38,117 nt of DNA from Planctomycetota bacterium (GCA_003669255.1 QWPO01000060.1:1-38117); one strand, 5' to 3'; positions 21,177-38,117 are shown, counted from the first letter of the stretch. Made by a program: numbers and translations. The notes: generated by a model not told the origin, from the letters alone.

Positions 21177-21255
21177 GATGGGGCATTGGCGGCCCCGAGC
21201 CACGCACGACGCCCTTAACCCGGAGCCGACGCACAGCTCGTCACCCGGACCGGTA

Positions 21256-21804
21256 TCACCCGTCCGTGGGATCCGCCGGCGTCGGCAGGAGGAGTTGCCA
21301 GAACTCGAGGTCGAGCCAGCGGCCGAACTTGAAGCCGGCCTCACGGACCGTGCCGCAGCAGCGGAAGCCGAGCGAACTGTGCAGGGCCACGCTCGCCACG
21401 TTCGTCGCATCGATGCCGGCGATGATCATGTGGATGTCTCGCTTCTTCGCGGCAACGATCAGCGCCTGAAGAAGCTGCCGCCCAACGCCCTCGCCACGAT
21501 ACTGCTCGTCGACGTAGACCGAGTGCTCGATGGAGTATTTGTACGCCGCCCGCGGTCGAAACGGGCCCCAGGTGGCAAAGCCAGCAAGCACTCCCGGCTC
21601 CCACTCGATGCCAAGCACGGGCACATCAGCCCGCTCTCGGTCGGCAAACCACTCTCGCATCACCGCTTCGGTCCGCGGGGCGTATTCGTAGAGTGACGTC
21701 GAGTTGAGGATCGCGTCGTTGTAGATCGACTGGATCGCCGGGAGGTGGGCGGCGGTGCAGGTGATCACCTCGCGGCGCGGTGGGGCAGGCTTCTTGCGGG
21801 GCAT
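21256..21804 (-). CDS. GNAT N-acetyltransferase, phosphinothricin/methionine-sulfoximine acetyltransferase (PAT)-like
   Basis: IYNDAILNSTSLYEYAPRT...WF, VYVDEQYRGEGVGRQLLQALI (acetyl-CoA motif A), NVASVALHSSLGFRCCG and FKFGRWLDLEFWQL are the typical PAT-family layout. Confidence 0.88.
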   Translation of the reverse strand: MPRKKPAPPRREVITCTAAHLPAIQSIYNDAILNSTSLYEYAPRTEAVMREWFADRERADVPVLGIEWEPGVLAGFATWGPFRPRAAYKYSIEHSVYVDEQYRGEGVGRQLLQALIVAAKKRDIHMIIAGIDATNVASVALHSSLGFRCCGTVREAGFKFGRWLDLEFWQLLLPTPADPTDG

Positions 21805-21810
21805 CGGCGA

Positions 21811-23565
21811 CTAACGGCGGGAGGCGGAGGGGGTGACGGGCGGTGGAGTGAGCAGCGAGACCACAATGAGGACGAGGAAGCCGAGCGGGATCGTCACCAG
21901 CCCCGGCTGGCTGAACGGGGTGAGGGCCAGATCGCGCGAGATTCCGTAGACCTTTTCGAAGGTGTCGGCCGACAGGAGAATCCATGCCAGCGACGCCAGC
22001 ATACCCACCGTGACGGCTGCGATGATCCCCTGCCGCGTCGTCCGCGGCCAGAAGAGCAGCATCACGAGGGCCGGCAGGTTGGCGCTGGCCGCGATGTTGA
22101 ACGCCCAGCCCACCAGGAAGCTCACGTTGAAGTTGCGGAATACGATCCCGAGCACCATCGCCACGATCCCGAGACCGACGGCCGCCAGCTTGCCCACGCG
22201 GATCTTCTCGTGGTCGTTCATCCGCACGCCCAACACGTTCTCCACGAGGTCGTGAGCCACCGCCCCGCTGCCGGCCATGATCAGCCCGCTGACGGTGCCG
22301 AGGACGGTCGTGAACGCGATCGCCGAGATCACGGCGAAGAGCGTGTTGCTGAAGCTCTTCGCCAGGAGCGGGGCCGCCATGTTGGTGTCGGTGGGGTCGA
22401 GGGCACCGGAAGTCATCGCGCCGAGGCCGAGGAACAGCGTGAGCACGTAGAATACACCGATGGCGGCGATGCCCACCACGGTGCTCTTCCTTGCCGCAGC
22501 GGCGTCCTTGACGGTGTAGTAGCGGATCAGGATGTGCGGCAGCGACGCGGTGCCGCAGAACAGGGCCAGCATCAGGCTCGCAAAGTCGAGTCGGTCGGCG
22601 AGTTTTCCCGTGGTGAGACCCTTGAAGTATCCGCCGGGCTTGAGCAGGTCTGAGCCCTGCTTCTCGACGGGAGAATACGTGGTGTGTAATCCATCAGCAT
22701 CCACGTGTTTCTTTGCAGACCACGTGACGATCGTCGAATCCTCGAGCGCCGAGAGGTAGGCAAGCGGCCCGAGTGGACCGGTTGTCCGCGCATCGCCGAA
22801 TCGCTCCGGCAGCCTGAGGATCGTGCCCACCGGCCGCAGGTCGTGGTCCTTCGACTGTGGCGCACCGTCCACGAGCACGGCGCCGTCGGGCTGTACCGTC
22901 TTCACCTGCGGGGCGAGGTTCTCTTCACCGGAGCGACCGGCGTTGACGACCAATCCACGCCCCAGGATCAGCACCGTGAGCACGCCGCAGAAGAAGACGA
23001 GCAGCGACCCCTTGATGAACTGCACCCAAGTCGTCGAGACCATTCCCGCTGTGACCACGATCAGCGTGACCGTCACACCCACGAGGATCACGCCCGCCTC
23101 GTGCGGCAGGCCGAGCAGCGGCTTGATGAGTGAGCCGGCGCCAACCATCTGCGGGATCAGGTAGAAGATGCTCACCACCAGCGTCGAGATCGCCACGGCG
23201 AGCTTGATGCCGCGGCTGTTGAACCGGCTGTCGAGGGCGTCGGCAAACGTGAACTTGCCGAGGGCCTTGATCGGCTCGGCGATCACAAACAGCGCCACGA
23301 TCCAGCCGGCCAGGAAGCCAATGGAGTAGAGAAAGCCGTCGTAGCCCGAGAACGCGATCATCCCGCAGATGCCGAGAAACGACGCGGCGGAGAGGTAGTC
23401 GCCGGCGAAGGCGATCCCGTTGACGAACCAGTGGATCTGACCGTGGGCGGCGTAGTAGCCGCTGGCCGACTGCCCCTTGCGTCCCAGCCAGAACGAGAGT
23501 GCGAGCACGCCAAGCACGAAGGCGGCAAAGATGGCGACGGCGACGAGCGAGGTCTGGTGGATCAT
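21811..23565 (-). CDS. actP: Cation/acetate symporter (sodium:solute symporter family)
   Basis: GYYAAHGQIHWFVNGIAFAGDYLSAASFLGICGMIAFSGYDGFLYSIGFLAGW, YLIPQMVGAG and GTASLPHILIRYYTV closely follow the ActP pattern. Multiple TM helices. A small membrane protein gene precedes it, as in yjcH-actP. Confidence 0.9.
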   Translation of the reverse strand: MIHQTSLVAVAIFAAFVLGVLALSFWLGRKGQSASGYYAAHGQIHWFVNGIAFAGDYLSAASFLGICGMIAFSGYDGFLYSIGFLAGWIVALFVIAEPIKALGKFTFADALDSRFNSRGIKLAVAISTLVVSIFYLIPQMVGAGSLIKPLLGLPHEAGVILVGVTVTLIVVTAGMVSTTWVQFIKGSLLVFFCGVLTVLILGRGLVVNAGRSGEENLAPQVKTVQPDGAVLVDGAPQSKDHDLRPVGTILRLPERFGDARTTGPLGPLAYLSALEDSTIVTWSAKKHVDADGLHTTYSPVEKQGSDLLKPGGYFKGLTTGKLADRLDFASLMLALFCGTASLPHILIRYYTVKDAAAARKSTVVGIAAIGVFYVLTLFLGLGAMTSGALDPTDTNMAAPLLAKSFSNTLFAVISAIAFTTVLGTVSGLIMAGSGAVAHDLVENVLGVRMNDHEKIRVGKLAAVGLGIVAMVLGIVFRNFNVSFLVGWAFNIAASANLPALVMLLFWPRTTRQGIIAAVTVGMLASLAWILLSADTFEKVYGISRDLALTPFSQPGLVTIPLGFLVLIVVSLLTPPPVTPSASRR

Positions 23566-23578
23566 CGTGGCGGCTCCC

Positions 23579-23824
23579 TCAGCGTTCTGCTCTGAGGATC
23601 ATGTAGGCGACTGCCAGCCCGAAGGCGGCGGCGATCAACCCCATGCCGTAGACGATCGCGAGGTTCACGCCGCCAAACGGCCGCAGTGACAGCAGGTCGG
23701 GCCGCACGAGCACCAGCGCCATGAAGCCGCCGTAGAGGGCCACGTAGACCCAAAACAGGGCGAGTCCCACCGGGCTGGCCGCCGTGCCGTCGCCAGACTG
23801 TCGAGGATCGTGATCGGGCGCCAT
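23579..23824 (-). CDS. Small two-TM membrane protein, DUF485 (YjcH)-like partner of ActP
   Basis: The in-frame ATG at 23824 has AAGGGGGAG just upstream. The 81-aa product has two hydrophobic helices (LALFWVYVALYGGFMALVLV, LAIVYGMGLIAAAFGLAVAYMIL). It ends 13 nt before the actP start. The upstream part of the track ORF (to 24037) overlaps the sulfatase gene and is Arg/Gly-rich. Confidence 0.7.
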   Translation of the reverse strand: MAPDHDPRQSGDGTAASPVGLALFWVYVALYGGFMALVLVRPDLLSLRPFGGVNLAIVYGMGLIAAAFGLAVAYMILRAER

Positions 23825-23904: not shown

Positions 23905-26900
23905 TCAGGCCGCTGGCTTTACCACTCGCCGCTTTGCCGGCCTGGAGTCCCCGGCCGGCTCCTCGACGACCGGATAGAGAAACACCGGCTTCTCGACGGT
24001 TCCTGCCGGGCGGCGGCCCGGAGCATGCGGGCCGCACAGTTCGGCCGCCATCCGCTCGGCTAGCAGGCGGAGCCGGACGACGGTGTCGGGATGCTCAGTC
24101 GCGACGTCTACGGTCTCGCCGACGTCGGCTTTGAGGTCATAGAGCCGGGGGTTCACCAGTGAGGCCTCGGCGGCGGTGTTCTCCGCGCCTGTGTCATTCG
24201 GCTGCGGCGCGATTACCAGTTTCCAGCGGCCGTCGCGAACCGCTTGGAGAGCTGTTCCCTTGAAATAGTAGTGGGCCTCACGGGCCGATTCGTGGCTCGT
24301 CCCCATGAGCAGGCCCGTGATGTCGCGGCCGTCGATCGTGGGCGTGGCGGCCACCTCGCCGCCGGCCAGGCCGACGAACGTCGGGAGGAGATCGATCGTG
24401 CCAGCAAAGGCATCGCATGTGCTCCCAGCCTGCACTCGCCCTGGCCACCAGGCGATCGTCGGCACCCGGACGCCTCCTTCCCAAGTGCTCGCCTTCGCTC
24501 CCCGCAGCGGACCGACCGACCCGCCATCCTTTCCCTTCGCCGCCCACGGGCCGTTGTCGCTCGTAAAGATCACGAGTGTGTCGCCGTCGAGCCCATCCTC
24601 CCGGAGCGTATCGAGGATCCTGCCCACGCTCCAATCAACTTCCTCAACCCAGTCGCCAAACCGCCCATTGCCGCTCTTTCCCCGAAATCGCTCGCCGGGA
24701 GCGAGCGGCACATGGACTGCCGTGTGCGGCACGTACAAGAAGAACGGTTTTCCTTTCGAATCGCGGATGAAGGCCACAGCCTCGTCGGTGCACCGTTCCA
24801 CGATCCCGCGCTGCATCTCGTCGGTGAGCAGCTCGACGACGCGATCGTCGCGAACGAGCGGCACCACTCGCTCACCCGTCTCCGCGGACTTTTTCTGCAT
24901 GTCGTTGGAGTAGGGGATCCCGAGGTAGCGGTCAAAGCCCTGGCGGCAGGGAAGGAACTCGCGCTGGTCACCGAGGTGCCACTTGCCGAAGCAGGCGGTC
25001 GCATAGCCAAGCGACTTGAGACGCTCGGCCATCGTGACCTCCGTGGGGTTCAAGCCATTCCTTCCAGCCGGAAAGAACACGCCCGGCACCGAGACCCGCA
25101 CCCCGTAGCAGCCGGTGAGAAGCTGGGCCCGCGACACCGAGCAGACGGGCGCGGCGTAGAAACTCGTGAGCTTCATACCCTCGCAGGCCATCCGGTCGAG
25201 GTGGGGCGTTTTTTGTTTCGTGGCCCCGAACGGTCCGATGTCGCCATAGCCAAGGTCGTCGATGAGCACGACCACGACGTTCGGCGGCCGTACCGCGGTG
25301 CGGGTCGCCAGCGGGTCGCCGGCACGATGCTGCGCCGCGGCGAGCGTCGCCTCGAGATCGCGGCGACGACCGGCGACGGCCGGATCGGCGGCGCGATCCC
25401 GCTGCTCGCCTGGGTCGCTCGCGACCTCGAAGACCTGCGTCACCTGTGACCGGGGATAGGCGATCAGCTTCCAGTCGGGAGTGACGACCGCCCGCTGGAC
25501 GTTCTTGTAGGCAAGGAGAATCGATTCGCGAATCGCTGCCTGCTCGCCCCGGACAACCGGCGCCAGACTCAGCCCCTCGCTGTCCCTCGGAGCCGGCACG
25601 CCGGCGAGGTCTCCAAGCGTGGCCGTCAGGTCGAAGAGGTAGGCCAAGGCATCCACCCGGCGGCCTGCGGGCACGCCAGGCCCCGCCATCACCGCCGGCG
25701 CGCGCATGGAGTGTTCATAGAGGTTCTGCTTTCCGAGGAGCCCGTGGCTGCCGAGTGCCAACCCCTGATCGGCGGCAAATAGCACGAGCGTGTCGTCGAG
25801 GCGACCCTTCTTCTCAAGGGCCGCGAGCACCCTGCCTATCTGATCGTCCATCCCTTCGATGAGGGCGTAGTAGTCGGCGAGTTCCGCTGAGATCCGCTGC
25901 GGCGCCAGCGGCCGTGGCAGCGTCTTTTCGTCACGGACCGCGAGGTCGCCGTTGTCGAACGGGTGCTCGGGAAGGAAGTTTGCTGGCGGTGGCGGCTCGT
26001 GACCGTCGTACCGGCGGCGGAACTCCCGCTGTGGCTGCCGCGGGTCGTGCGGCGCGGTGAACGCGCACCAAGCGAAGAAGGGCTCGTCACCGAGGTCTTC
26101 GATGAAGGCCTCGGCAGCGCCACCGATGATCGCCGACGAGTGGCGATCGGTCGCGGCGTCGGGCTCGGGCTCGGCGTGGCCGCGGAACGACACCGTCGGC
26201 AGACCGAAGTGGCCGTGCATCCCGCCGTAGAACACGTGGCTCCCCTCGGCAAAGCAACGGACGAGCGACTCCTTTCCATTGTGCCACTTGCCGGTGGCGA
26301 AGGTCCGGTAGCCGGCCCGCTCGAAGGCCTCGGGCCACGTGTCGCAACCCCCGAGCTGCTCGCGGACGCGAAACAATGACCGGCCCGACAAGAGCATCGC
26401 CCGGCTCGGCACGCAGACGGCCCCCTGCATCGCCCCCATGCAGTACGCCCGGTCGAAGGATGTGCCTCGGGTCACGAGCGCATCGATCGTAGGCGTGCGG
26501 ATCGCCGCGTTACCAAGCGCGTGGATCGTGTCGGCCCGCATGTCGTCGGCGAGGAAGACGATCACGCTCGGCCGGCACCTGGCTTCTGCGGATTCGAAAC
26601 GCTCGCCGTCTCCAGGCTTTTCGGCGATTGGCCGAGACGGAGCGGATGGCCCGTTCGCCGCATCGGCGAACGGGAGCGGCCAGTCGGGATGCGGAACGTG
26701 CTCGCGGTCGAGGATCAACCGCATCCGTTCAGCCACCGCAGGGTTTCGACCTGTGACGTTCGTCGTCTCCGACGGATCGGCCGCCAGGTCGTAGAGTTCG
26801 ATCGGCCCTGGCTCAGCAGGCTTGTTCGGACCCACGGCCCGGCGGATCGCCTTCCAACGGCCGTCCACCGCCGCCTGCCACTTGCCTTCGGTGAGCTCGC

Positions 26901-28170
26901 GGTAGAGCATCCGCTCCGCGGGCGGCTCAGCCTCTCCGCGGAGCATCGCGGCGAGGCTCGTGCCGTCAACACCTGCGGGTATCCGTTCCGCGAGGCCCGC
27001 GAGATCGAGGAGCGTCGGCAGCCAGTCCTCGAAGCCGCTGGGCGAATCGATCACGCGGCCGGCTACAATTTGGCCGGGCCAGACGGCGACCGTCGGCACC
27101 CTGAGGCCACCCTCGTAGGGCGACCCCTTCCAGTCGCGCATGGTGTCGTTGCTCGCGAGTCGCTGCGTGTCGAGGCCGCCAGTTCCCGGCATCGTGGCCC
27201 CGTTGTCACTCGAGAACACGAAGATCGTGTCGTCGGCGAGATTCAACTCATCGAGGAGTTTCATGATCCGGCCCACCTCGCGATCCAGCCGCGTGACCAT
27301 CGCCGCGTAGGTCGCCAGCGGTCGGCGGCATGGGACGTAGCCCCGGCCTCCGAGATATGGCTGCTCGTCGCCGAAGTGATCGTAGTAGCCGGCCAGCGAC
27401 GGCTCGTCGGCGGGCACCTGGAGCGCCAGGTGTGGGACTGTCGTGGGCACGTACAGGAAGAACGGCCTCGTGGCATTGGCCCGCACGAACGCCAGTTGCT
27501 GCTCGGCGATCAGGTCGGCCGAGTAGGCCGTTCCCGAGAAGCTCGCGAAGGCAGCGTCGCCGGGGGGCGGGTCGGCCGGAATCGATCCGCCTCGCGGCAC
27601 AGGCGGGTTGTCGATCTCAACCCGCTCGCGGTCGCTCCAGAGATGCTGCGGATAGTAGCTGTGGGCCTCCCGCTGGCAGTTGTAGCCGAAGAACCGCTCG
27701 AATCCGGAGGCCAGCGGCTCCGACGGGCTCCCTGGAGCGCCAAGACCCCACTTGCCGAAGCAGCCCGTCGCATAACCCGCATCCCGCAGGAGCGACGCGA
27801 GTGTCGCGGTGCCGGCCGGCATGGACGCCTGCCCCTCCGGCTTCGCTTCGCGATTCGAACGAACGACGGCATGACCCGGATGCCTGCCCGTGAGCAGCAC
27901 ACAGCGGCTCGGGGCGCAGACGGCGCTTCCCGCCCAGTGCCGGGAGAGCCGGGTGCCGCGGCCGAACAGGGCATCGATCTCGGGGGTCTTGATATCCCGA
28001 GAGCCCAGGCAAGAAAGGTCGCCGCTGCCGAGGTCGTCACAGAGAAAGAAGACGATGTTTGGCCGACGTGACGCCGGGCTCGTGCCGGCGTCAGCGGCAG
28101 CCGGCTGGAAACGCGCCGGAACGCCCATGCAGAGTGCCAGCACGGCGAGGATCGAAGCCACTCGCATCAT
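23905..28170 (-). CDS. Tri-modular sulfatase: three complete S1 (formylglycine-dependent) sulfatase domains in one ~1421-aa exported polypeptide
   Basis: One uninterrupted ORF. Module 1: FFLCDDLGSGD, CAPSRCVLLTGRH (Cys codon 27916-27918), SSDNG. Module 2: VFLADDMRAD, CVPSRAMLLSGR (26413-26415), GKWH, AADQG. Module 3: VVLIDDLGYGD, CSVSRAQLLTGCY (25141-25143), GKWHLG, TSDNG. The only signal peptide is at the N-terminus (MMRVASILAVLALCMGVPA). GGAGGAGG lies directly upstream of ATG 28170/28167, and the track's GTG 28182 sits inside this RBS. Confidence 0.9.
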   Translation of the reverse strand: MMRVASILAVLALCMGVPARFQPAAADAGTSPASRRPNIVFFLCDDLGSGDLSCLGSRDIKTPEIDALFGRGTRLSRHWAGSAVCAPSRCVLLTGRHPGHAVVRSNREAKPEGQASMPAGTATLASLLRDAGYATGCFGKWGLGAPGSPSEPLASGFERFFGYNCQREAHSYYPQHLWSDRERVEIDNPPVPRGGSIPADPPPGDAAFASFSGTAYSADLIAEQQLAFVRANATRPFFLYVPTTVPHLALQVPADEPSLAGYYDHFGDEQPYLGGRGYVPCRRPLATYAAMVTRLDREVGRIMKLLDELNLADDTIFVFSSDNGATMPGTGGLDTQRLASNDTMRDWKGSPYEGGLRVPTVAVWPGQIVAGRVIDSPSGFEDWLPTLLDLAGLAERIPAGVDGTSLAAMLRGEAEPPAERMLYRELTEGKWQAAVDGRWKAIRRAVGPNKPAEPGPIELYDLAADPSETTNVTGRNPAVAERMRLILDREHVPHPDWPLPFADAANGPSAPSRPIAEKPGDGERFESAEARCRPSVIVFLADDMRADTIHALGNAAIRTPTIDALVTRGTSFDRAYCMGAMQGAVCVPSRAMLLSGRSLFRVREQLGGCDTWPEAFERAGYRTFATGKWHNGKESLVRCFAEGSHVFYGGMHGHFGLPTVSFRGHAEPEPDAATDRHSSAIIGGAAEAFIEDLGDEPFFAWCAFTAPHDPRQPQREFRRRYDGHEPPPPANFLPEHPFDNGDLAVRDEKTLPRPLAPQRISAELADYYALIEGMDDQIGRVLAALEKKGRLDDTLVLFAADQGLALGSHGLLGKQNLYEHSMRAPAVMAGPGVPAGRRVDALAYLFDLTATLGDLAGVPAPRDSEGLSLAPVVRGEQAAIRESILLAYKNVQRAVVTPDWKLIAYPRSQVTQVFEVASDPGEQRDRAADPAVAGRRRDLEATLAAAQHRAGDPLATRTAVRPPNVVVVLIDDLGYGDIGPFGATKQKTPHLDRMACEGMKLTSFYAAPVCSVSRAQLLTGCYGVRVSVPGVFFPAGRNGLNPTEVTMAERLKSLGYATACFGKWHLGDQREFLPCRQGFDRYLGIPYSNDMQKKSAETGERVVPLVRDDRVVELLTDEMQRGIVERCTDEAVAFIRDSKGKPFFLYVPHTAVHVPLAPGERFRGKSGNGRFGDWVEEVDWSVGRILDTLREDGLDGDTLVIFTSDNGPWAAKGKDGGSVGPLRGAKASTWEGGVRVPTIAWWPGRVQAGSTCDAFAGTIDLLPTFVGLAGGEVAATPTIDGRDITGLLMGTSHESAREAHYYFKGTALQAVRDGRWKLVIAPQPNDTGAENTAAEASLVNPRLYDLKADVGETVDVATEHPDTVVRLRLLAERMAAELCGPHAPGRRPAGTVEKPVFLYPVVEEPAGDSRPAKRRVVKPAA

Positions 28171-28211
28171 CACCTCCTCCACCTGATCCGACGAGATCCA
28201 ATGATACGGCG

Positions 28212-31200
28212 TCAGTCACGCGGCGCGAGGACATCGCAGAGATAATCCTTCACGGCGATGTACCGGGGTTTCGACCCCGGATAGGCCAGTTCACAGTCCA
28301 CGCCGACTGCATCGAGCCGCTCCTTGAGCTTCGCGCCCAAGTTGGCCGAGTGTGTCGGGTCTTTCGCTGGCTTGCCCAGATCCGGCGGCGACGCGTAGAC
28401 GAGATAGACAGGCGGATCATCGGCCGAGACCAGCGCGTAGGGCGAATACCTCGCGATCTCGGGAAGGAGCCTGCTGCGGGCCGCGAGGAACTCGGCAAAC
28501 GTCGGGGGTGGAAACGACTCCGCCGGAGTTTCTTCCTTCCCCGCACCCTTCCGCTTCTTGCCGGCGGACTTCCTGACCGCGGGCTTCTTCGCGGGGGTCG
28601 ATTCCTGCTGGCGGCGGTACGCGACCTTGAACGGGTTCTCCGCAGGACCGTCAAGGTTCTCATTGACGAGTTCCGCCTGCACACCCGCCCACCAGCGGTC
28701 GTAGAACTCGGCGAGGCGGCGGACCATGTCCGGGTTGCCATCGGCCACGTCCCGCACCTCGCCCGGATCGGCGGCAACGTCGTAGAGTTCCCAGCCGTCG
28801 GGGCTGTTGGCGACGTTGACGAGGCTCCAACGGCCTTCGCGAACGCGGACGTTCGCGAACTGGCTCGCCGCCGCCTGCCCACGCTTCCAGCGACCCTGAT
28901 GCGTCACGAGCGGCCGGTCGGGCCACTCGGCGGTCGCGTCGCGGAGCAGGGGCACGAGGCTGCGGCCCTCGATCTTCGCCGCGACCTCTGGCGGGACCTC
29001 GACGCCGGCGATCTCGCAGAGCGTCGGCAGCACGTCAAGATGGGCGGTCACCGCCGGCACATCGACGCCCTCAGGCAGCGATCCCTTCCACCGCCAGAAC
29101 GACGGCACCCGCGTGCCTCCCCGCCAGACGGTGCCCTTCGCCCCGCGCATCCCGGCGTTAAAGACGCTCGAACCGTTGGCTGTGCCGTTGTCGGTCGTGA
29201 ACACCACCAGCGTGTCCCCGGCCATGCCGAGCCGTTCAAGTTCGGCGAGCAGCCGGCCAACGTTCGTGTCGATGTTCTCGATCATGCCGTAGAACTTCGC
29301 GATCTGGGCCCGCTGCTTCGGGTCCCCCACGCCCGCCTTCTCAAGCAGGTCGAGGTACACCCCATCCGAGCCCGCCGGACAATCGAGCGGCGCGTGCGGG
29401 GCGTTGGACGTGATCATGCAGAAGAACGGTGTTTCGTTCTTCCTACAGCGGCGCATCCAGGCGAGCGCTTCGTCGAAAAACACGTCGGTACAGTAGCCCG
29501 TCGTTGCCACGAACTCGCCGTCGCTGCGGATCACGGGATCGACGTACCGGTTGCCCTCAACGTCGCCGCAGCTGCCGGGATACGTCTGGCCGATGCCCCC
29601 CGCGCCGTGGATGAACGAGCGGTCGAAGCCGCGACGGCCGGGCTGGTAGGCGTCTTCATCACCGAGATGCCACTTGCCGAAGATGCCGGTGGTGTAGCCG
29701 GCCCTTCGCAGCAGGTCGGGCAGGGTGGTGGCCGAGCGTGCCAACCGCTCCCGCTCATCGATCGTGTGCGTGACGCCCGAGTGGAACTCGTGCCGCCCAG
29801 TGAGCAGCGCCGCCCGCGTCGGGGCGCAGGTGGGGCTCGCATGAAACTCGGTGAGCCGCACGCTTTCCCGATACAGGCGGTCGAGATTCGGCGTACGGAT
29901 CACCGGATTGCCGTGGGCGGCGATGTCCCCGTAGCCCTGATCGTCGGTCATCACGTAGACGATGTTCGGCGGCCACCGTGCGGCCTTTCCCGCCCGTTCC
30001 TTCGCCGACGTCGGCGCGGCGAGCGCCCGGCACTCGTCGGCGATCCGACTCCATTCGGCGTCGAGCGCCCGGACCTGCTCCGGCTGCGCTGCGGCGAGGT
30101 CGTTTGTTTCGCAGCGGTCGGTCGCGAGATCGTAGAGTTCCCACGGCTGCTCCTTGACCGCCACGAGCTTCATGTCGCCCACGCGAGCGGCGCGGTGGCC
30201 TTCGTGGCACCACCAGAGGGCGTCGTGGGCCGGCGGCGCTGCTGGGCTCGCCAGCGACTTCGCGAAACTGCGACCGTGCAGCGGAGGCACGGTGGCGCCG
30301 TCGTGCTCTCGCGGAAGCGGCACCCCGGCGAGTTCCAGCGCCGTTGGCACGACATCGACGACGTGGACGGGCTGGTGGCGGAGTTCACCCCGCGCCGAAA
30401 TGCCGCGCGGCCAGTGGACAATCCAGGGCGTGGCAATGCCCCCTTCGTGGACCCAGGTCTTGTGCCGCCGAAACGGTGCGTTGCAGCAGCTCGACCAGCC
30501 CGGCCCGAGGCATAGAAAGGTCTTCCGCGAACCGGGCGGGGCCGACCGGTCGTGCCCTTCACCGCGGACCATGATCTCGGCCGAGGCGCCGTTGTCGCTC
30601 AGAAAGAGGATCAGCGTTTCGTCGAGGGCCTGCATCGCCTCGAGCTGGCGGACGATCCTGCCGACCTCGCGATCCATGCCTTCAACCATCGCCGCATGGA
30701 TCGCCATCTTGGTGGCCTGAAACTCCCGCTGCTCGGGCGTGAGCGTCTCCCATGGCAGGGGCCGCTCGACCTCGCCGGGGCCAAGCGCCTTCAAGGCGTC
30801 GGGGAACGAGTAGGGAGGGCCCACATCCCGTTCGATCGCGGCTGGTGGGGTCGTCACGATGCCATATTCCTTCAGCCGCGCCACGCGGGCCTGCCGCAGT
30901 TCATCCCAGCCGGGGCGGTAGCGGTCGCGAGTCTTCGCGATCAGATCGGGCGGCGCCTGAAGCGGGAAGTGGGGAGCAGTGAAGGCGACATAGTGGAAGA
31001 AGGGTGTTCCTGAGTGATTCCGCGAGTGCTCGGCAAGGCAGGCGACGGCATGGCCGCCGATCGCCGTCGTGGCATAGAAGTCGTCTGCTCTGCTCGCGGC
31101 TGGCATGCCAGCCGCTCCCGCGGGATCGAAGTAGTTGCTCTGGCCGATGGCGCTGATATCGAGCGACCGATGAAATCCCTGGGCGAGCGGATCGCCGTCG

Positions 31201-31592
31201 ACGTGCCATTTTCCCGAGTGGTAGGAGCGGTAGCCCGCGGGCGCGAGCAGGGCGGGAAGAAGCCGCGCCCAGGCGGGCCGCGCCGCCTTCACGCCACCGT
31301 CGCCTCCCGGCAGCGCATCGCGGCGGATTGCCTGCGCGTAGTAGCCCGTCAGTAGTGCCGCGCGAGTGGGCCAGCAGCGGGCGGTGTTGTAGGCGTTCGT
31401 ATAGCGGAGCCCTCCCGAAGCGAGCCGGTCGAGGTTCGGTGTGTCGATCTCGCCACCCTGGCAGCCAAGGTCGGAGAAGCCAAGATCGTCGGCCAGGATC
31501 ACGACCACGTTGGGCGGGGCAGCCGGCACCGAACCCACCACCGCCGTGGCGGCAACCAGGGCGGCGATGGCGGCTGACCACTGGCCTCGCAT
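28212..31592 (-). CDS. Bi-modular sulfatase with a Lys-rich linker and an extra ~105-aa C-terminal domain of unknown function
   Basis: Signal peptide MRGQWSAAIAALVAATAVVGSVPA. Module 1: VILADDLGFSD, CWPTRAALLTGYY (Cys codon 31374-31376), GKWH, LSDNG. Module 2: VMTDDQGYGD, CAPTRAALLTGRH (29826-29828), GKWHLG, TTDNG. The tail runs from ~residue 995 (nt ~28215-28610). GGAAGGAG lies 6 nt upstream of the ATG. Confidence 0.9.
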   Translation of the reverse strand: MRGQWSAAIAALVAATAVVGSVPAAPPNVVVILADDLGFSDLGCQGGEIDTPNLDRLASGGLRYTNAYNTARCWPTRAALLTGYYAQAIRRDALPGGDGGVKAARPAWARLLPALLAPAGYRSYHSGKWHVDGDPLAQGFHRSLDISAIGQSNYFDPAGAAGMPAASRADDFYATTAIGGHAVACLAEHSRNHSGTPFFHYVAFTAPHFPLQAPPDLIAKTRDRYRPGWDELRQARVARLKEYGIVTTPPAAIERDVGPPYSFPDALKALGPGEVERPLPWETLTPEQREFQATKMAIHAAMVEGMDREVGRIVRQLEAMQALDETLILFLSDNGASAEIMVRGEGHDRSAPPGSRKTFLCLGPGWSSCCNAPFRRHKTWVHEGGIATPWIVHWPRGISARGELRHQPVHVVDVVPTALELAGVPLPREHDGATVPPLHGRSFAKSLASPAAPPAHDALWWCHEGHRAARVGDMKLVAVKEQPWELYDLATDRCETNDLAAAQPEQVRALDAEWSRIADECRALAAPTSAKERAGKAARWPPNIVYVMTDDQGYGDIAAHGNPVIRTPNLDRLYRESVRLTEFHASPTCAPTRAALLTGRHEFHSGVTHTIDERERLARSATTLPDLLRRAGYTTGIFGKWHLGDEDAYQPGRRGFDRSFIHGAGGIGQTYPGSCGDVEGNRYVDPVIRSDGEFVATTGYCTDVFFDEALAWMRRCRKNETPFFCMITSNAPHAPLDCPAGSDGVYLDLLEKAGVGDPKQRAQIAKFYGMIENIDTNVGRLLAELERLGMAGDTLVVFTTDNGTANGSSVFNAGMRGAKGTVWRGGTRVPSFWRWKGSLPEGVDVPAVTAHLDVLPTLCEIAGVEVPPEVAAKIEGRSLVPLLRDATAEWPDRPLVTHQGRWKRGQAAASQFANVRVREGRWSLVNVANSPDGWELYDVAADPGEVRDVADGNPDMVRRLAEFYDRWWAGVQAELVNENLDGPAENPFKVAYRRQQESTPAKKPAVRKSAGKKRKGAGKEETPAESFPPPTFAEFLAARSRLLPEIARYSPYALVSADDPPVYLVYASPPDLGKPAKDPTHSANLGAKLKERLDAVGVDCELAYPGSKPRYIAVKDYLCDVLAPRD

Positions 31593-31644
31593 GTCGTGCT
31601 CCTTCCGATGGTTCGGCCTGGGCTCGATGCCGTACTCCGTTCCG

Positions 31645-32793
31645 CTACGGCTTCTCGATCTCAGCGACCACCTTCGAGTAGGCCGCCGAGCGTTCCTCTG
31701 GCTTCATGCCCCGCAGTTCGAGAAGCATCGGCCGCAGGCCGGTCGCCCAGGAGGCGTCCTTCGCCACCTTCTCATCGGCCTTGGCCCTCAGGGCATCGGC
31801 ATCCATGCCACCGGCGGCTGCGGCCGCCGCGATCACGCTCCGCAGATACTCCGCCGCCTGCACGTCGGGATTCGGTGCGGCCGGGGCGTCGAAGCGGCCG
31901 AGCGCCCAGGCGATGCCCTCGACCATGTGCTTCTGGAACATCGGTTCCTTCCAGGTTGCATCGTTGTGGCCAAAGTTCGTCGAGAACACACGGCCTTGCC
32001 CATAGTCGCGGACCCACGACACCGGCACGTGCCACGGCTCCTTCGGGGTGCTCGCCTGCATGTCGAGGCTTACGAGCACCCGGAGGTTCTCCGGCTTGTA
32101 CCGCATGTCGTACTGGTAGATCTCGTCCTGGCAGCGGAACCGCTCCGGAAACATCGCCGCCACGCGGTGACCGGGCTCGTGCACCACGAAGGCGTGCTCA
32201 CCGCCGGAGCCCCACGGATGCCCGGCGAAGTGGCCGCCGATCATCTCGCAGTAGGCGTCGGAACTCTTGAATGTGTCGGTGGCGGCGTGGAACCCGATGA
32301 AGGCCTTACCCGACTTAATCCACTCGAGGAAGGCCGTGAGGTCGGGCACCGGCAGCTCGCCCGTCGTGCTGAGGAAAATCACGCCGTCAAAGTCGCGGAG
32401 CGACTCCGTGGAAAAGACCTTCGCAAACTCCTTCGACAGCCCCGCCTGCCAGGCATCGTCGTCGCGGCGAAACTTCTCCTGCTCGGCCTGAAAGGCGGCC
32501 TCCTGGTTCTTCCAGTCGTCATCCGAAACATCCTTGCCCCGCTTCGGCGGCGTAGGCTGCGGCATCCGGCCCGGCGGCAGCCGCAGGAAATCGCAGTGAA
32601 AGAGGCCGGTCGAGCGGCCAAGTTCCTCGAGGATGGGCTCGGCCGTGCCGATCGACGCATGCCGAAATCCGGTGGTAACGCTCACCACCAGCAGCCGTGC
32701 CGGCTTTTCAGTCTCGGCGCGAGCCGCAACCCCGCCGAGCACCGCCACGACAGCCATCGAGACCGCCGCCAGAAACCAACAAAAACTACGCAT
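31645..32793 (-). CDS. Exported ThuA domain-containing protein
   Basis: LLVVSVTTGFRH, DGVIFLSTTG, AFIGFHAATDTF, GGHFAGHPWG, DEIYQY, PVSWVRDYGQGRVFSTNFGH and MVEGIAWAL form the ThuA-like pattern. The in-frame ATG at 32793 gives a signal/TM N-terminus (MRSFCWFLAAVSMAVVAVLGGVAARA) and overlaps the upstream stop (TAATG). Confidence 0.85.
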   Translation of the reverse strand: MRSFCWFLAAVSMAVVAVLGGVAARAETEKPARLLVVSVTTGFRHASIGTAEPILEELGRSTGLFHCDFLRLPPGRMPQPTPPKRGKDVSDDDWKNQEAAFQAEQEKFRRDDDAWQAGLSKEFAKVFSTESLRDFDGVIFLSTTGELPVPDLTAFLEWIKSGKAFIGFHAATDTFKSSDAYCEMIGGHFAGHPWGSGGEHAFVVHEPGHRVAAMFPERFRCQDEIYQYDMRYKPENLRVLVSLDMQASTPKEPWHVPVSWVRDYGQGRVFSTNFGHNDATWKEPMFQKHMVEGIAWALGRFDAPAAPNPDVQAAEYLRSVIAAAAAAGGMDADALRAKADEKVAKDASWATGLRPMLLELRGMKPEERSAAYSKVVAEIEKP

Positions 32794-34112
32794 TACTTCT
32801 CTCCAATGCACCACAGGGAATCGTGCGTCCTCAGGAACATCCGCCCATCGACGCACACGGGCGTCGCCACCATCATCTCCTCCACGCTGCCGCCGCCGAC
32901 GACCTCGGGGATTCGCCCGTGGTCCGCCGACTTCTCCCCAGCACCCGGCTCAGGCCAGCCCAACACGCTCGCCGCACCATCCTCCCGGACCACGAGCACG
33001 CGGCCATCCACGAGCACCGGCGACGCGCTGTAGGCACTGCGGTTCTTGGGGAGTTCCCTCCGCCAGCTCGTCTTGCCCGTGGCAGCGTCGAGCTCCTCGA
33101 CGATTCCCTTGTCGCCGCAGACGACGATCCGGCCGTCTTTGACCGCGGGCGTCGGCACATCGGCGCCGACGTCTTTGCGGACCCAGACCACGTGGCTCTG
33201 CGTGACGTCACCCGATCCGCCACGGCGGATCGCCGTGATGGTGTCACCACGGGCGTACGGCGCGATCACGAGATCGTCGGCAAGAACCGGCGAGGCAATC
33301 GAGCGGAAGAAGCCGTTGGCCTCAGGATTGAGCCCGCCAACCCGCCAGAGTTCCCTGCCGTTCGCCGCATCGTGGGCCGTGACGTGATCGGCGCCAAGCA
33401 CAAAGAGCACCTCGGCTGGCTCACCCTTCGCGGGGTCGCCGGCAGCAACGAGCGGCGTCGAGTAGCTCTGGGCCGCCTCCTCGGGCGCGGGCACGTCACG
33501 GTCGTGCTTCCACCGCAGTTCGCCCGTCGTACGATCGAAGGCGGCGAGATAGGAGGGCCCCGTCTGCATCACGGCGATGACGACGGCGTTACTCGTAAGC
33601 ACGGGTGAGGTACCGAGATCCCACCAGAGCGTGTCTTCGCCGAACCGCTGCTGGAGGTTCGTCCGCCACCGCTCCGCGCCGGTCGCCAGGTCGAGGCAGG
33701 CGAGTTCGCCGCTCTTGAAGTAGACCCACACGAGCTCACCGTCGGTGACAGGCGAAGAGTTCGCACCGGTTGCCTTCTTGTGCTTGCCGGCGCGGGCCTC
33801 GCCAAGCGTCTTTCGCCACAACTCCTTACCGGCGCGATCGAGGCAGATCACGGCGTCTTTGTCGTCGATGGTGCAGGTGACGATGAGCCGCTCGCCCCAA
33901 ACCGCCGGCGTGCTGGCGCCAAGCCCGGGCAGCGGCACCTTCCAGAGCACGTGCTGCTCAGGGCCCCACTCCGACACGTAGCCACCGCCCGCTGCCGCGC
34001 CGTCGAGCGCGGGCCCGCGCCAGTTGGGCCAGTTGTCGGCGACGGCCGTGACGGTCGTCGCCATCATCAGTCCCACGACTCCTGCCCGTCCGCTCGATCG
34101 CCGCATCGACAT
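32793..34112 (-). CDS. PQQ-like beta-propeller repeat protein (BamB-like fold), exported
   Basis: The N-terminal signal is followed by DNWPNWRGPALDG. Recurring propeller blades have W-K/R and G..TP.V....L/V motifs (LWKVPLPGLGASTPAVWGERLIV, RWRTNL, LRWKHD, LWRVGG, TSWRREL). GAGGAGG lies immediately upstream of the ATG. Confidence 0.85.
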   Translation of the reverse strand: MSMRRSSGRAGVVGLMMATTVTAVADNWPNWRGPALDGAAAGGGYVSEWGPEQHVLWKVPLPGLGASTPAVWGERLIVTCTIDDKDAVICLDRAGKELWRKTLGEARAGKHKKATGANSSPVTDGELVWVYFKSGELACLDLATGAERWRTNLQQRFGEDTLWWDLGTSPVLTSNAVVIAVMQTGPSYLAAFDRTTGELRWKHDRDVPAPEEAAQSYSTPLVAAGDPAKGEPAEVLFVLGADHVTAHDAANGRELWRVGGLNPEANGFFRSIASPVLADDLVIAPYARGDTITAIRRGGSGDVTQSHVVWVRKDVGADVPTPAVKDGRIVVCGDKGIVEELDAATGKTSWRRELPKNRSAYSASPVLVDGRVLVVREDGAASVLGWPEPGAGEKSADHGRIPEVVGGGSVEEMMVATPVCVDGRMFLRTHDSLWCIGEK

Positions 34113-34144
34113 GCCTCCTCATCCACCTGGTTGCGAAGGCTAGT

Positions 34145-36925
34145 CTACCCGCCTGCCGCCGCGGGCTTCCGCTTCGGCGGCAGGCCGTCAGGACCAAAGG
34201 GATCCACCGGATCGGGATTGGGTGTGGGCATGGCGGCGCCAACCTCCCGCCGCCAGGCCTCGAGTCGAGACCGCAGTTCGGCGGCGCGCTCCGGACGTTC
34301 GGCCGCGAGATCCCGCTGTTCCCCCTCGTCGGCGGCAAGGTCGAAGAGTTCCACCCGGCCGCCCTCGAGGTGCTCGACGATCTTCTCGCGACGGCCGTCC
34401 GGTGAGTCGCCGGCGAGCAGCGCCGCCGCGGGCCGCCCCCCTTGATTGGAATAGTGCGGGTAGTGCCAGACGAGGTCGCGGGCGGGAATCGCCCCGGTCC
34501 CCGAAAGCAGTGGTCGCAGGCTCGTGCCGTCGAGTATCTCGCCGGCCGGCGGCGGGCAACCCCCGAGATCGACGAGCGTGGCAGCGATGTCAAGCGTGGT
34601 CACCGGCACCTCGCACCGCAAACCCGGCTTCACGGTGCTGGGCCAGCGGATGAGGAGTGGCACGCGGATGCCCCCTTCGTAGAGATAGCCCTTACCGGCG
34701 CGAAGCGGGAGGTTCGACGTCGGCGCACCCTCAGCCGTCGACAGGCCGCCGTTATCGCTCGTGAATACCACGAGCGTGTTGTCGACGAGATCCTGTTCCT
34801 CGAGGGCGACGAGCACGGTTGATACCGCCTCGTCCATCTCGTCGATCATGGCGGCATAGACGGGGTGATCCTGCACCGCCCGAGCCGTGCGTTCGCCTTC
34901 GGGAACCTCCCGGGGATCTGCACCCGGCAGCGCCGCGGCGCGGCGCTGCTCCTCGGCGACAAGTTCGGCGGTCGACCGCAGCGGAACGTGCACGGAGTGC
35001 AGCGGTAGGTAGCAGAAAAAGGGACGACCACGGTTGGCAGCGATGAACGCCGTTGCCTGCCGGGCAATCGCGCGGGCGTGGTGCGGATCGTCATCGGGAC
35101 CCTGCGCTGGATTGACGTCGATCGAGCCGGAGGCCTCGAACCCGTGCGACGGCACGTCCGCCGGCGGCCCGAGGTGCCATTTGCCAAAGACCCCGGTGGT
35201 GTAGCCTGCCGCCTTGAGCCGCTCCGCGACCGTAGTCTCATCAGCAGGCAGTCCCCGGAGGTATTCGGCCGGGAGCAGCGATCCGCGCCGTTCGCCGCCG
35301 ATGTAGTTCGTGATCCCGACGCGAGCCGGGAACTTTCCCGTTATCAGGGCTGCGCGGGTCGGCGAGCAGACGGGTGCGGCAGCATAGGCCTGCGTGAACG
35401 TCATCCCGGCGGCAGCGAGGGCGTCAATCGCAGGCGTACGGTAGAACGTGCTTCCTGTGCAGCCGAGATCCCGGGCGCCGAGATCGTCGGCCAGAAACAC
35501 GAGAAGGTTCGGCTTTCGTGGCACGGCCGACGTCGATACCGGTTCGGGCTTCGGCACGCCCGGATCCCACCAGCGGTCGAGCTCGGCCCGCAACCGCGCC
35601 ACCACATCCGGATGCTCTCCGGCAACGTTCGTTCGCTCGTCCGGATCGGCGATGACGTCGAAGAGTTCCGGCTCACCGCGTTCAAAGTTCTCCCGCGACG
35701 CGTCGTCGACGTGTCGCCCCTGCCACGCAGGAAACTGCTTTCCGGGAGCCGGCGGTGCCGGCACGATCAGCTTCCAGCGATCCTGCACCATCCACCGCCA
35801 GAGCAGGCTCGTCGTCGGATCGTCGAGGTCGACGATGGTGTGCGTGTAACACTCACCAAACACCTCCGTGCGGGCTGCGGTCGCCACCTCGTCCAGCAGG
35901 TTTACTCCCGGCAGCCCGACCGGCGACTCGACCCCGCATGCCTCGAGCACCGTCGGGGCGATGTCGATGGTGCTGGCAAGGGCCTCGCTCGTTCGCGGAG
36001 CAATCGTGCCCGGCCGGCGGAACATGATCGGCGTCCGCAGGCCGCCATCGTAGGGGGAGAGCTTCGACCGCGGGGCAAACCGCTTCGACTGGGGATCCTG
36101 GATCCAGCCGTTGTCGGTGACATACACCACGAGCGTGTCACGGGAGAGCCCTTCGCGGTCGAGATGGTCGAGCAGGTCGCCGACAGTGCGATCGAACCGC
36201 TCGACGTTGCCCCAGTAGCGAGCGACGTGGACGCTGTCGGTCTTCGACGAGTAGTGATCGACGAGTTCCTGCGGTGGATCGTGCGGATCGTGGGGCAGCA
36301 TCGGGGCGTACCAGACGAAGAATGGCGTGCCGGCGGTGCGGCAGCGGCCGACGAAGTCATAGATCGGTTGCATGGTGCCACGGCCGATGGCGAGCCCCTC
36401 GTCACCGTGCCGCTCACCCTTCGTCATCCCCTCGTCGAAGCCGCCGCGGGAAAAGTCCCCTTGCCACCACTTACCGGTCTGGAGGCTTTTGTAGCCGGCA
36501 GGGGCGAGCAGTCGCGGCAGCGTGGGCCACTCGTCGAGGTGGCGGTTCATCCGCTCGCGACCGGCGATGAACGCCTTGGTGCCCTGTGGGCTCTGCCGAG
36601 GGCTGCCCGGCGTGTCGGGCGGATCATTGCCGACGATCCTGTGTTCGTGCGGATAACGGCCCGTGATGATCGACGCCAGGCTCGGGCAGCAGAGGCTGCT
36701 CGTCACATAGCCCCGCGGAAAAACGAGGCTCTCCCGGGCGAGTCGGTCGAGGTTCGGCGTCCGCAGGTGCTCGTGACCCATGAAGCCGTAGTCGTGCCAG
36801 TGCTGATCGTCGGCGACGATCAAGACCACGTTGGGACGGGATGGCTGGTCGCCGCCAGCTGCGGCCACGATCCCACTCGTCCCCAGGGCTACGACCGCCG
36901 CCGCGATCCATCTCCTGATTCCCAT
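34145..36925 (-). CDS. Bi-modular sulfatase; the N-terminal module has a non-canonical FGly motif (C-C-P-S-L)
   Basis: An in-frame ATG at 36925 (or 36940) gives the signal peptide MGIRRWIAAAVVALGTSGIVAAA. The 81 upstream codons in the track ORF overlap the divergent sulfatase gene. Module 1: LIVADDQHWHD, LCCPSLASIITGRY, GKWWQG, VTDNG. Module 2: VFLADDLGARD, CSPTRAALITGKF (Cys codon 35366-35368), GKWHLG, TSDNG. Confidence 0.9.
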   Translation of the reverse strand: MGIRRWIAAAVVALGTSGIVAAAGGDQPSRPNVVLIVADDQHWHDYGFMGHEHLRTPNLDRLARESLVFPRGYVTSSLCCPSLASIITGRYPHEHRIVGNDPPDTPGSPRQSPQGTKAFIAGRERMNRHLDEWPTLPRLLAPAGYKSLQTGKWWQGDFSRGGFDEGMTKGERHGDEGLAIGRGTMQPIYDFVGRCRTAGTPFFVWYAPMLPHDPHDPPQELVDHYSSKTDSVHVARYWGNVERFDRTVGDLLDHLDREGLSRDTLVVYVTDNGWIQDPQSKRFAPRSKLSPYDGGLRTPIMFRRPGTIAPRTSEALASTIDIAPTVLEACGVESPVGLPGVNLLDEVATAARTEVFGECYTHTIVDLDDPTTSLLWRWMVQDRWKLIVPAPPAPGKQFPAWQGRHVDDASRENFERGEPELFDVIADPDERTNVAGEHPDVVARLRAELDRWWDPGVPKPEPVSTSAVPRKPNLLVFLADDLGARDLGCTGSTFYRTPAIDALAAAGMTFTQAYAAAPVCSPTRAALITGKFPARVGITNYIGGERRGSLLPAEYLRGLPADETTVAERLKAAGYTTGVFGKWHLGPPADVPSHGFEASGSIDVNPAQGPDDDPHHARAIARQATAFIAANRGRPFFCYLPLHSVHVPLRSTAELVAEEQRRAAALPGADPREVPEGERTARAVQDHPVYAAMIDEMDEAVSTVLVALEEQDLVDNTLVVFTSDNGGLSTAEGAPTSNLPLRAGKGYLYEGGIRVPLLIRWPSTVKPGLRCEVPVTTLDIAATLVDLGGCPPPAGEILDGTSLRPLLSGTGAIPARDLVWHYPHYSNQGGRPAAALLAGDSPDGRREKIVEHLEGGRVELFDLAADEGEQRDLAAERPERAAELRSRLEAWRREVGAAMPTPNPDPVDPFGPDGLPPKRKPAAAGG

Positions 36926-37058
36926 TGTCGTAGACCCCATGCGCGACACCACGGCCGACAGCCTTGTCGGCAACCCGTCCAGGGACGAGATTGAGACAGT
37001 ATGCGGGCAACGACGGCCCGCTGCATCACCCCTGAGTTCACCCCGGAGACGCTCCACT

Positions 37059-38117
37059 ATGGCCGGCATACGATCGCTGGCGGCGGCGCTCCTGCTGGCC
37101 CTCGCGGCCGCGGATGTGGGGGCGGTCGATCCAAACCCAAACGTGATCGTCGTGCTCGTCGACGACATGGGCTGGAAGGACCTTTCCTGCCAGGGGAGCG
37201 AGTTCTACGAGACACCGCAGATCGACCGGCTGGCCGCCTCGGGCATGCGGTTCACGACAGCGTACTCCGCCTGCACCGTCTGCTCGCCGACCCGAGCGGC
37301 AATGATGACCGGCCAGTATCCGGCACGGCTGCACCTCACCGACTGGATCGCCGGACACCACCGGCCGCACGCGAAGCTGCAGCCCCCTGACTGGACCAAG
37401 CACCTGCCGCTCGGGGTGGTGACGGTCGCAGAGCGGCTCAAGGCCAAGGGCTACGCAACCGCGTCGATCGGCAAGTGGCACCTTGGAGGCAAAGAGCAGT
37501 CCCCAGAAGATCAGGGATTCGATGTGAACCTGGGCGGCACCGACAAAGGTCAGCCTCCGAGCTACTTCTCGCCGTACCGGATTTCCGCGCTCTCAGACGG
37601 CCCCGAGGGGGAGTACCTCACTGACCGCGAGGCCGCTGAGGCCGTCGGCTTCATCGAGTCCCACCACGACCGACCGTTCTTCCTCTACCTTGCGCACCAC
37701 GGCGTGCACGCGCCGCTTCAAGCGAAGCCGGAGGTGGCGGCTGGCTACGCAGCAAAGCGACCCGGCATCCCAGCAACACTCGCCACCTACGCGGCGATGG
37801 TCGAGAGCGTCGATGATGCGATGGGGAAAATCCTCGACACGCTCGATCGACTCGGCATCCGCGACCGCACCGCGATCTTCTTCACAAGCGACAACGGCGG
37901 CCAGGCGTCGATCACCGACATGCTGCCGCTCCGCGCAGGCAAGGGCTCGGCCTACGAAGGGGGCATCCGCGTGCCGTTCATCGTGTCGTGGCCTGAAGTC
38001 ACCAAGCCGGGCAGCACGAGCGACGTGCCCGTGATCACGCCCGACATCCCCGCGACGATCCTCGACCTCACCAGGGCGGGGATCGAACCGGGTCAGCCGA
38101 TCGACGGCCGAAGCCTC
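37059..38117 (+). CDS. Sulfatase, 3'-truncated by the window edge (absent from the supplied ORF track because no stop is reached)
   Basis: My own translation from ATG 37059 (frame 3, 353 codons to the window end, no stop): MAGIRSLAAALLLALAAADVGAVDPNPNVIVVLVDDMGWKDLSCQG...CTVCSPTRAAMMTGQYPARLHLTDW...IGKWHLGG...FFLYLAHHGVHAPL...FFTSDNGG...KGSAYEGGIRVPFIVSWP. It has a signal peptide plus all canonical S1 sulfatase motifs. Confidence 0.85.
   Translation, partial: MAGIRSLAAALLLALAAADVGAVDPNPNVIVVLVDDMGWKDLSCQGSEFYETPQIDRLAASGMRFTTAYSACTVCSPTRAAMMTGQYPARLHLTDWIAGHHRPHAKLQPPDWTKHLPLGVVTVAERLKAKGYATASIGKWHLGGKEQSPEDQGFDVNLGGTDKGQPPSYFSPYRISALSDGPEGEYLTDREAAEAVGFIESHHDRPFFLYLAHHGVHAPLQAKPEVAAGYAAKRPGIPATLATYAAMVESVDDAMGKILDTLDRLGIRDRTAIFFTSDNGGQASITDMLPLRAGKGSAYEGGIRVPFIVSWPEVTKPGSTSDVPVITPDIPATILDLTRAGIEPGQPIDGRSL

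Follow-up and report, generated by a model that had tools for sequence, protein, structure and literature searches.

Here we describe a cluster of four sulfatase genes, A to D, from a freshwater Planctomycetota bacterium (GCA_003669255.1 QWPO01000060.1:1-38117), in which eight family S1 catalytic modules are spread over two two-module proteins, one three-module protein and one single-module protein; "the window" denotes the whole 38,117-nt stretch of DNA that was analysed. Its G+C content is 67% and it carries planctomycete hallmarks, namely DUF1559 with an N-terminal methylation motif, PEP-CTERM and PATR repeats. Gene A (23905..28170, minus strand) encodes a 1421-aa three-module sulfatase with an N-terminal signal-peptide-like segment and three PF00884 matches, its modules being A1 (26686..28062), A2 (25336..26571) and A3 (24016..25284), all on the minus strand. 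Gene B (28212..31592, minus strand) encodes a 1126-aa protein with two PF00884 modules, B1 (30033..31514) and B2 (28638..29969), followed by a Lys-rich linker and, at the C-terminus, a remnant of about 95 aa of a BD-FAE/Abhydrolase_3 esterase (28215..28499), again all on the minus strand. Gene C (34145..36925, minus strand) encodes the 926-aa, likewise twofold PF00884 protein C1-C2 (C1, 35561..36835; C2, 34211..35512; both minus strand), and gene D (37059..38117, plus strand), divergent from C, encodes a single-module sulfatase that the window end truncates at residue 353; its full orthologue, in a 98% identical locus (L001), has 456 aa.

The gene borders repay some attention. The open reading frame (ORF) of A spans 23905..28182 (minus strand); the gene itself begins at the ATG at nt 28170, which follows the Shine-Dalgarno sequence GGAGGAGGTG. 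For C, the ORF spans 34145..37168 (minus strand) and the true start is nt 36925. B and A are separated by a genuine intercistronic gap of 41 nt (28171..28211, minus strand), running from TGA through 29 nt that include GGAGGAGGTG to ATGATG, where relatives have an in-frame short linker instead. Between B and C the sulfatase array is broken up by a ThuA-like gene (31645..32793, minus strand; PF06283, E 6e-43) and a PQQ_2 beta-propeller gene (32793..34112, minus strand; PF13360, E 2.4e-31). An earlier note on this DNA had described four packed genes; the gene count stands, but the array is interrupted by these two genes, and D, which the window end truncates, is encoded on the plus strand. The ThuA-like and PQQ_2 genes share one base (TGATG), and their position between B and C is kept in four related loci (L001, L002, L003, L008).

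The module counts were obtained with two profiles. Judged against the Pfam gathering score of 25, PF00884 matches three stretches of the gene A ORF (E 7.9e-146), two of gene B (E 3.5e-101) and two of the gene C ORF (E 1.7e-101), and a hidden Markov model (HMM) built from the eight modules gives 3+2+2+1 near-full-length matches in A, B, C and D, which is the distribution that the earlier note had read from the ORFs. The protein sizes it gave (1421, 1126 and 926 aa) are matched as well, and its estimates of the four junctions fall within about 10 nt of the module starts found there (nt 26571, 25284, 29969 and 35512). The linkers measure 10-40 aa and contain much Pro and Ala and many charged residues, and A, B and C each have one hydrophobic, signal-peptide-like segment, at the N-terminus, and none internally, in agreement with the short linkers and solely N-terminal signal peptides that had been claimed. 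An AlphaFold2 model of protein C (71-sequence alignment, without predicted aligned error), made to look for a fixed pseudo-dimer interface, has confidently predicted modules, with a predicted local distance difference test score (pLDDT) of 79.8, a predicted template modelling score (pTM) of 0.54 and a pLDDT below 50 in linker residues 456-468.

The same fusions recur well beyond this assembly. L001, an independent ENA assembly with 98% identity, has the order D, C (926 aa), PQQ, ThuA, B (1126 aa), A (1421 aa), DUF485, SSF, and a protein 98% identical to A (P0001), also of 1421 aa, led to this locus; an exact-sequence look-up of B returned no record. A search with A found many three-module proteins of about 1400 aa with 76-82% identity from different samples, and a search with C found at least 120 clusters of 900-970 aa that align over 95-100% of the query at 65-99% identity. 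An uninterrupted frame with at least two complete S1 modules is reproducible across assemblies, and the fusions are kept across many metagenome-assembled genomes (MAGs) at 65-90% identity. Furthermore, the ratio of nonsynonymous to synonymous substitution rates (dN/dS), computed against the orthologues in L008 and L003, is 0.09-0.19 for all seven complete modules (A1, 0.15-0.17; A2, 0.17; C1, 0.09-0.18, the lowest of all modules). The linkers behave differently: their dN/dS, where measurable, is 0.19-1.4 against 0.15-0.19 in the cores (comparison with L003), their conservation is 33-46% against about 80% in the cores, and their length and sequence also vary. The three ORFs are thus confirmed as genuine uninterrupted fusions of complete, different sulfatase modules. 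Opposite the sulfatase genes lie antisense ORFs of 500-800 aa (28059..30515, 26521..28071 and 35078..36994, all plus strand); all the domain matches and the purifying selection belong to the sense frames, and these ORFs are not genes but shadow ORFs of the kind that high-GC DNA typically produces.

The eight modules share just 25-43% pairwise identity, which rules out tandem duplication as the origin of the array, and by sequence similarity their nearest solved relatives fall into different S1 subfamilies (S1_20, S1_4, S1_16 and human arylsulfatase A). A1 is closest to 7ANA (E 2.5e-102), which is BT1622, an S1_20 enzyme acting on 3S-Gal/GalNAc, that is, 3-sulfated galactose or N-acetylgalactosamine (PMC10154620), and B1 to 7ALL (E 9.2e-82), which is BT4683, an S1_4 enzyme acting on 3S-Gal (PMC10154620), followed by 1HDH, the P. 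aeruginosa arylsulfatase AtsA (E 1.5e-71). The nearest structure to A3 is 1E2S, human arylsulfatase A (E 3.2e-75). C2 and D are S1_16-like, both being nearest to 9FO1, "k-carrageenan sulfatase S1_16" (E 3.3e-115 and 3.7e-107, respectively), and S1_16 enzymes have 4S-Gal/GalNAc as substrate (PMC10154620). B2 has moderate similarity to S1_16/S1_19 structures (9FO1, E 7.5e-51; 9HH3, E 1.7e-50), A2 is a divergent S1 module without a close solved relative (5G2V and 6HR5, E about 1e-30 to 1e-34), and the best PDB match of C1 reaches only 3e-32. NCBIfam gave just generic arylsulfatase/choline-sulfatase matches to the eight modules, far below cut-off and free of subfamily information.

Active-site residues were compared in an alignment of all eight modules, numbered after human arylsulfatase A (ARSA) and anchored on the A3-ARSA alignment. 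Asp29, Asp30, Cys69, Lys123, His229, Asp281 and Lys302 are kept in every module, the only exceptions within the metal-ligand and catalytic set being Gly (A1) and Trp (C1) for His125 and Gln (A2) for Asn282, so that C1 has the set only in part. The C/S-x-P/A-x-R signature is present in A1 (CAPSR), A2 (CVPSR), B1 (CWPTR), B2 (CAPTR), C2 and D (both CSPTR). In A3, which otherwise has GKWH and SDNG, Val replaces Pro71 (CSVSR), as it does in all 19 of 19 orthologues; A1 combines SDNG with GKWG, the Gly in place of His125 being found in 100 of 101 orthologues; and A2 combines GKWH with ADQG. The proposal that each module carries its full complement of motifs accordingly holds for seven modules under loosened patterns, with CSVSR, GKWG and ADQG non-canonical, and fails for C1, a non-canonical S1-like module in which Leu stands for Arg73 and Trp for His125 (CCPSL, GKWW) and the C-x-P-x-R signature is lost.

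The C1 change is shared by a wide group of sequences. CxPSL together with GKWW occurs in 119 of 120 C orthologue clusters, and a phmmer scan with C1 against 1.84 billion cluster representatives returned 891 clusters at E<=1e-30; among the best 149 of these 891 (P0241-P0389), 126 are single-module, and Leu occupies the Arg position in 110 of the 133 with the motif region. Because the two motifs are so widely kept among the orthologues and C1 has the lowest dN/dS of all modules, the motif change does not look like decay. Arg73 and His125 of arylsulfatase A hold the formylglycine hydrate, and the Arg belongs to the recognition motif of the formylglycine-generating enzyme (FGE); their joint change in C1 suggests altered chemistry or maturation. 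Our literature search found no paper mentioning a CxPSL motif. The same residue bears on the earlier count of up to eight Cys to be converted: a Cys is indeed present in all eight modules, but C1 is without the Arg of the FGE recognition motif. As had been noted, the genes that tile the 38-kb window are free of FGE (PF03781) and radical-SAM maturase domains; since maturation genes can be unlinked, this tells us nothing about what lies elsewhere in the genome.

To follow the modules through related genomes, we mapped those of the 120 best A homologues onto the modules of the window. Orthologous modules (60-95% identity) occur as A1-A2-A3, A1-A2, A2-A1 and A1-A3, in the mixed architectures B2-A1-A3, B1-B2-A1-A3, B1-A1, B2-A1 and B1-X-B2, and as B1-B2-A1-A2-A3 in a single five-module protein of 2390-2396 aa (P0002, P0003, P0005). 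In L002 the five-module gene follows the same PQQ and ThuA genes and lies beside a C-like two-module gene. Other loci divide the array into B1-B2-esterase and A1-A2-A3 (L003, L004), into B1-B2-esterase and A1-A3 (L008, L009), or into B1-B2, A1-A2' and A3-X (L025, L027). The ORF boundaries thus move, while the chromosomal module order is conserved. In the closest two-module relatives (L008 10283..13264, L009, P0015/P0016; A1 92-95% identical) A2 is missing exactly, from linker to linker. Synonymous divergence (dS) from L008 differs strongly from module to module (A1, 0.17; A3, 0.61; B1, 0.53), which hints at recombination between strains at the scale of modules.

Fused and separate versions of these modules coexist. 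The sulfatase ORFs of 82 related loci and the window comprise 151 single-, 24 double-, 6 triple- and one five-module ORF, which puts multi-module ORFs at about 17% in a sample biased to relatives of A; the expectation that S1 sulfatases are normally single-module proteins holds in general, but not so strictly in this set. In 70 loci, belonging to MAGs of Planctomycetota and Verrucomicrobiota that come mostly from freshwater lakes, A3 orthologues (about 70% identity) stand alone, and the synteny comparison that the earlier note had proposed accordingly finds modules as separate genes elsewhere, though many relatives are fused. Taken together, multi-module sulfatases are common and reshuffled in freshwater Planctomycetota metagenomes. 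Larger sulfatase arrays are also present in public metagenomes, with five modules in 2487-2712 aa and module sets that differ from the window's; examples of large arrays are P0305 (2712 aa), P0021 (2487 aa) and P0315 (1484 aa).

Gene B has undergone a change of its own. Relative to intact orthologues, which are B1-B2-BD-FAE proteins of 1350-1356 aa in L003 and L008 and whose esterase domain is also kept in L004 and L009, a 189-aa in-frame deletion with breakpoints at a short "FA" repeat has removed the HGGGW and GSSAG motifs. The remaining stretch (28215..28499) has no Pfam match; the idea that this C-terminal tail is a novel domain was ruled out by alignment to L003 and L008, in which it corresponds to the last third of the BD-FAE esterase, and the remnant is dead.

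We consider it probable that A, B and C are tethered, exported sulfatases of several specificities, whose S1 modules have been fused through flexible linkers and serve the breakdown of one sulfated glycan. Domain content, conservation, selection on every module, shuffling of the modules and synteny were observed directly; enzymatic activity, substrate, export and the benefit of linkage are what we infer. Gene fusion within a conserved operon-like array has joined S1 modules of different subfamilies via flexible linkers of 10-40 aa, and each polypeptide would be made and exported once, by its single N-terminal signal peptide; since there is one N-terminal signal-peptide-like segment per chain and the linkers are short, export as a covalently linked array, as the earlier note had it, is the natural reading. 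Each chain would then present one and the same sulfated glycan with two or three independent exo-sulfatase sites that differ in regio- or sugar-specificity. That the module subfamilies would act on one substrate follows from taking the fusions as Rosetta-stone evidence, and the sequence neighbours suggest 3-O-/4-O-sulfated Gal/GalNAc-type or fucose-type residues as targets. The benefit of tethering would lie in fixed stoichiometry, shared localisation and a high local concentration of complementary activities on a single, heavily sulfated heteroglycan, with no fixed reaction order. The array itself evolves through clean in-frame events in which whole modules are gained, lost, permuted, fused or split off.

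The genomic context offers some guidance on the substrate. The cluster C-PQQ-ThuA-B-A-DUF485-SSF is conserved in related loci (L001, L002, L003, L008), and downstream of A (15438..23824, minus strand) lie genes for DUF485 with an ActP/MctC-like symporter, a GNAT acetyltransferase, a UxaE-like protein, an IolO-like TIM-barrel epimerase, a FucU-like mutarotase, an aldo-keto reductase, a Zn-dependent dehydrogenase and an L-fucono-1,5-lactonase-like amidohydrolase (292 bits against a cut-off of 400). It is possible that these neighbours provide a fucose-type oxidative pathway together with acetate or carboxylate uptake. Because B orthologues have an esterase-like domain, a symporter accompanies DUF485 and the neighbouring genes are of fucose type, the context would fit a sulfated, possibly acetylated, glycan of the fucose/galactose type, the identity of the sugar being a suggestion only. 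At the other end of the window (58..11190, plus strand) are five genes. Two of them encode PATR-repeat proteins, of which one also has a PEP-CTERM anchor; the products of the other three are a DUF1559 protein that carries an N-methylation motif, a protein of 1440 aa containing an F5/8 type C domain, and a protein that combines NAGPA (phosphodiester glycosidase) and PATR domains. All five may be surface or glycan-binding proteins.

Several observations weigh against tethered sulfatases sharing one glycan. The subfamilies and specificities are read from similarity to the nearest PDB sequences, which is not a subfamily assignment; none of the neighbouring catabolic genes reaches the curated NCBIfam cut-offs; and no recognisable glycoside hydrolase stands beside the array in the window to name the glycan. 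C1, which is without the hydrate-stabilising Arg and His, may perhaps be no sulfatase at all. Furthermore, the frequent fusion and fission and the stand-alone orthologues could be equally compatible with linkage that is nearly neutral.

A more far-reaching version of the same idea, which we offer tentatively and regard as doubtful, is that freshwater Planctomycetota make secreted "poly-sulfatases" with as many as five different modules per chain, rewired by clean in-frame module gain, loss and permutation, in which linkage would provide kinetic synergy on densely sulfated polymers, and that the C1 clade would in addition have another nucleophile chemistry, another maturation route or a non-catalytic role in sulfate-ester binding.

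A serious rival, though one that we hold unlikely on balance, is that the fusions are the near-neutral outcome of losing a stop codon and the next signal peptide in a packed, co-transcribed high-GC operon, with modules that work independently of one another. Such an origin would sit well with boundaries that shift freely between close relatives, a B-A spacer of just 41 nt, the commonness of stand-alone orthologues and the poor conservation of the linkers. However, C1-C2 persists down to 65% identity in at least 120 clusters, the best matches include no split version, A1 is multi-module in 119 of its 120 top matches (a ranking that favours long proteins), and every fusion needs the clean removal of an internal signal peptide, all of which is harder to reconcile with drift.

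The ordered or processive desulfation proposed in the earlier note, an assembly line in which the N-to-C order of the modules mirrors the steps of desulfation and the chain is handed from module to module, fared poorly and now appears quite improbable. Its attraction is that the chromosomal order B1, B2, A1, A2, A3 recurs in several lineages, whether fused or split, and that the predicted specificities differ between modules. Against it, both A1-A2 and A2-A1 are found among orthologues of 61-70% identity; A2 is dispensable, as in A1-A3; B1-A1 and B2-A1 fusions exist; A3 usually stands alone; the B-A boundary is a gene gap here and a short linker in relatives; and the linkers are variable. Nor does the AlphaFold2 model of C, at a pTM of 0.54 without predicted aligned error, give any sign of a fixed inter-module geometry, and the characterised S1 carbohydrate sulfatases nearest to these modules are reported to act on terminal residues (PMC10154620), leaving no obvious way to thread a polymer. 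Since module order and number vary among close orthologues, a fixed order of steps is disfavoured, which still leaves room for a benefit from proximity.

Fusion could also serve co-translation and a single export event, after which a protease would cut the linkers of the polyprotein to release single-module sulfatases. The linkers would lend themselves to this, being exposed, with plenty of Pro, Ala and charged residues, and predicted to be disordered (pLDDT below 50 in residues 456-468 of C), but their alignments contain no conserved cleavage motif and the cluster has no conserved protease, and we think such processing very unlikely. Finally, that an assembly or sequencing artefact erased the stops between separate genes can be dismissed with near certainty: although high-GC genomes do yield long spurious ORFs, of which the antisense ORFs (500-800 aa) are examples, every junction is in frame and has purifying selection on either side, and L001, the C clusters, dozens of MAGs and hundreds of protein clusters all keep the fusions.

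Sulfated glycans are among the carbon pools with the slowest turnover, and sulfatases gatekeep their degradation. To our knowledge, bacteria of the Planctomycetes-Verrucomicrobia-Chlamydiae (PVC) group have hundreds of sulfatase genes, almost all of them uncharacterised. If tethering speeds the desulfation of densely sulfated substrates, it would explain part of the PVC expansion in sulfatase genes, and the arrays would be ready multi-specific biocatalysts for tailoring fucoidans, carrageenans and glycosaminoglycans. Fusion patterns may also serve as Rosetta-stone links between orphan sulfatase subfamilies that share a substrate and thereby aid annotation, and the CxPSL/GKWW clade gives a concrete case in which to test how much change the formylglycine mechanism tolerates. 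We regard this conserved clade and the pattern of module shuffling as the most original leads to come out of the locus.

Multi-module S1 proteins as such have precedents. They were already acknowledged by SulfAtlas in 2016 (PMC5066984), and Kim et al. (2016) reported one gene with two sulfatase domains from Porphyra-associated Planctomycetes, proposing the fusion of adjacent genes (PMC4807772). These cases represent the same phenomenon as ours, in that neighbouring but unrelated sulfatase genes of Planctomycetes have fused, but they are one-sentence notes on two-domain proteins. In our literature search we met with no structural or enzymatic work on a multi-sulfatase chain, nor with any account of chains of three or five modules, of permuted modules or of a conserved array whose ORF boundaries move. 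Multi-module fusions are thus common among these relatives, but the literature that we searched mentions them only in passing and contains no characterisation of them.

Among characterised enzymes, the closest in fold and catalytic residues are the S1 sulfatases of gut Bacteroides (BT1622 and BT1636 of S1_20, BT4683 of S1_4, and S1_16) and the marine S1_16/S1_19 carrageenan sulfatases, which match A1, B1, C2 and D at E 1e-82 to 1e-115 and are, like these modules, all likely exo-acting on sulfated sugars of the Gal/GalNAc type. In those systems every enzyme is a protein of its own, of about 450-520 aa and with its own signal peptide, and they are co-regulated in polysaccharide utilisation loci, whereas two or three modules share a chain here. 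A1 also matches the large S1_20-type proteins Amuc0451 and Amuc0953 of Akkermansia muciniphila (PDB 9S8A and 9S8X), whose extra domains include an Ig-like PA14 domain and for which the available part of the source describes no second sulfatase module (PMC13524802). The 1263-aa entry 9S8X was considered as a possible solved multi-sulfatase and set aside on the same partial description, being Amuc0953, an S1_20 enzyme with Ig-like PA14. A parallel in architecture is the GH78 rhamnosidase/sulfatase of Formosa agariphila (PDB 6HR5), in which a sulfatase is joined to another enzyme of the same pathway, much as B orthologues are joined to a BD-FAE esterase; there the partner is a glycosidase, whereas in the window the partners of each sulfatase are sulfatases of other subfamilies.

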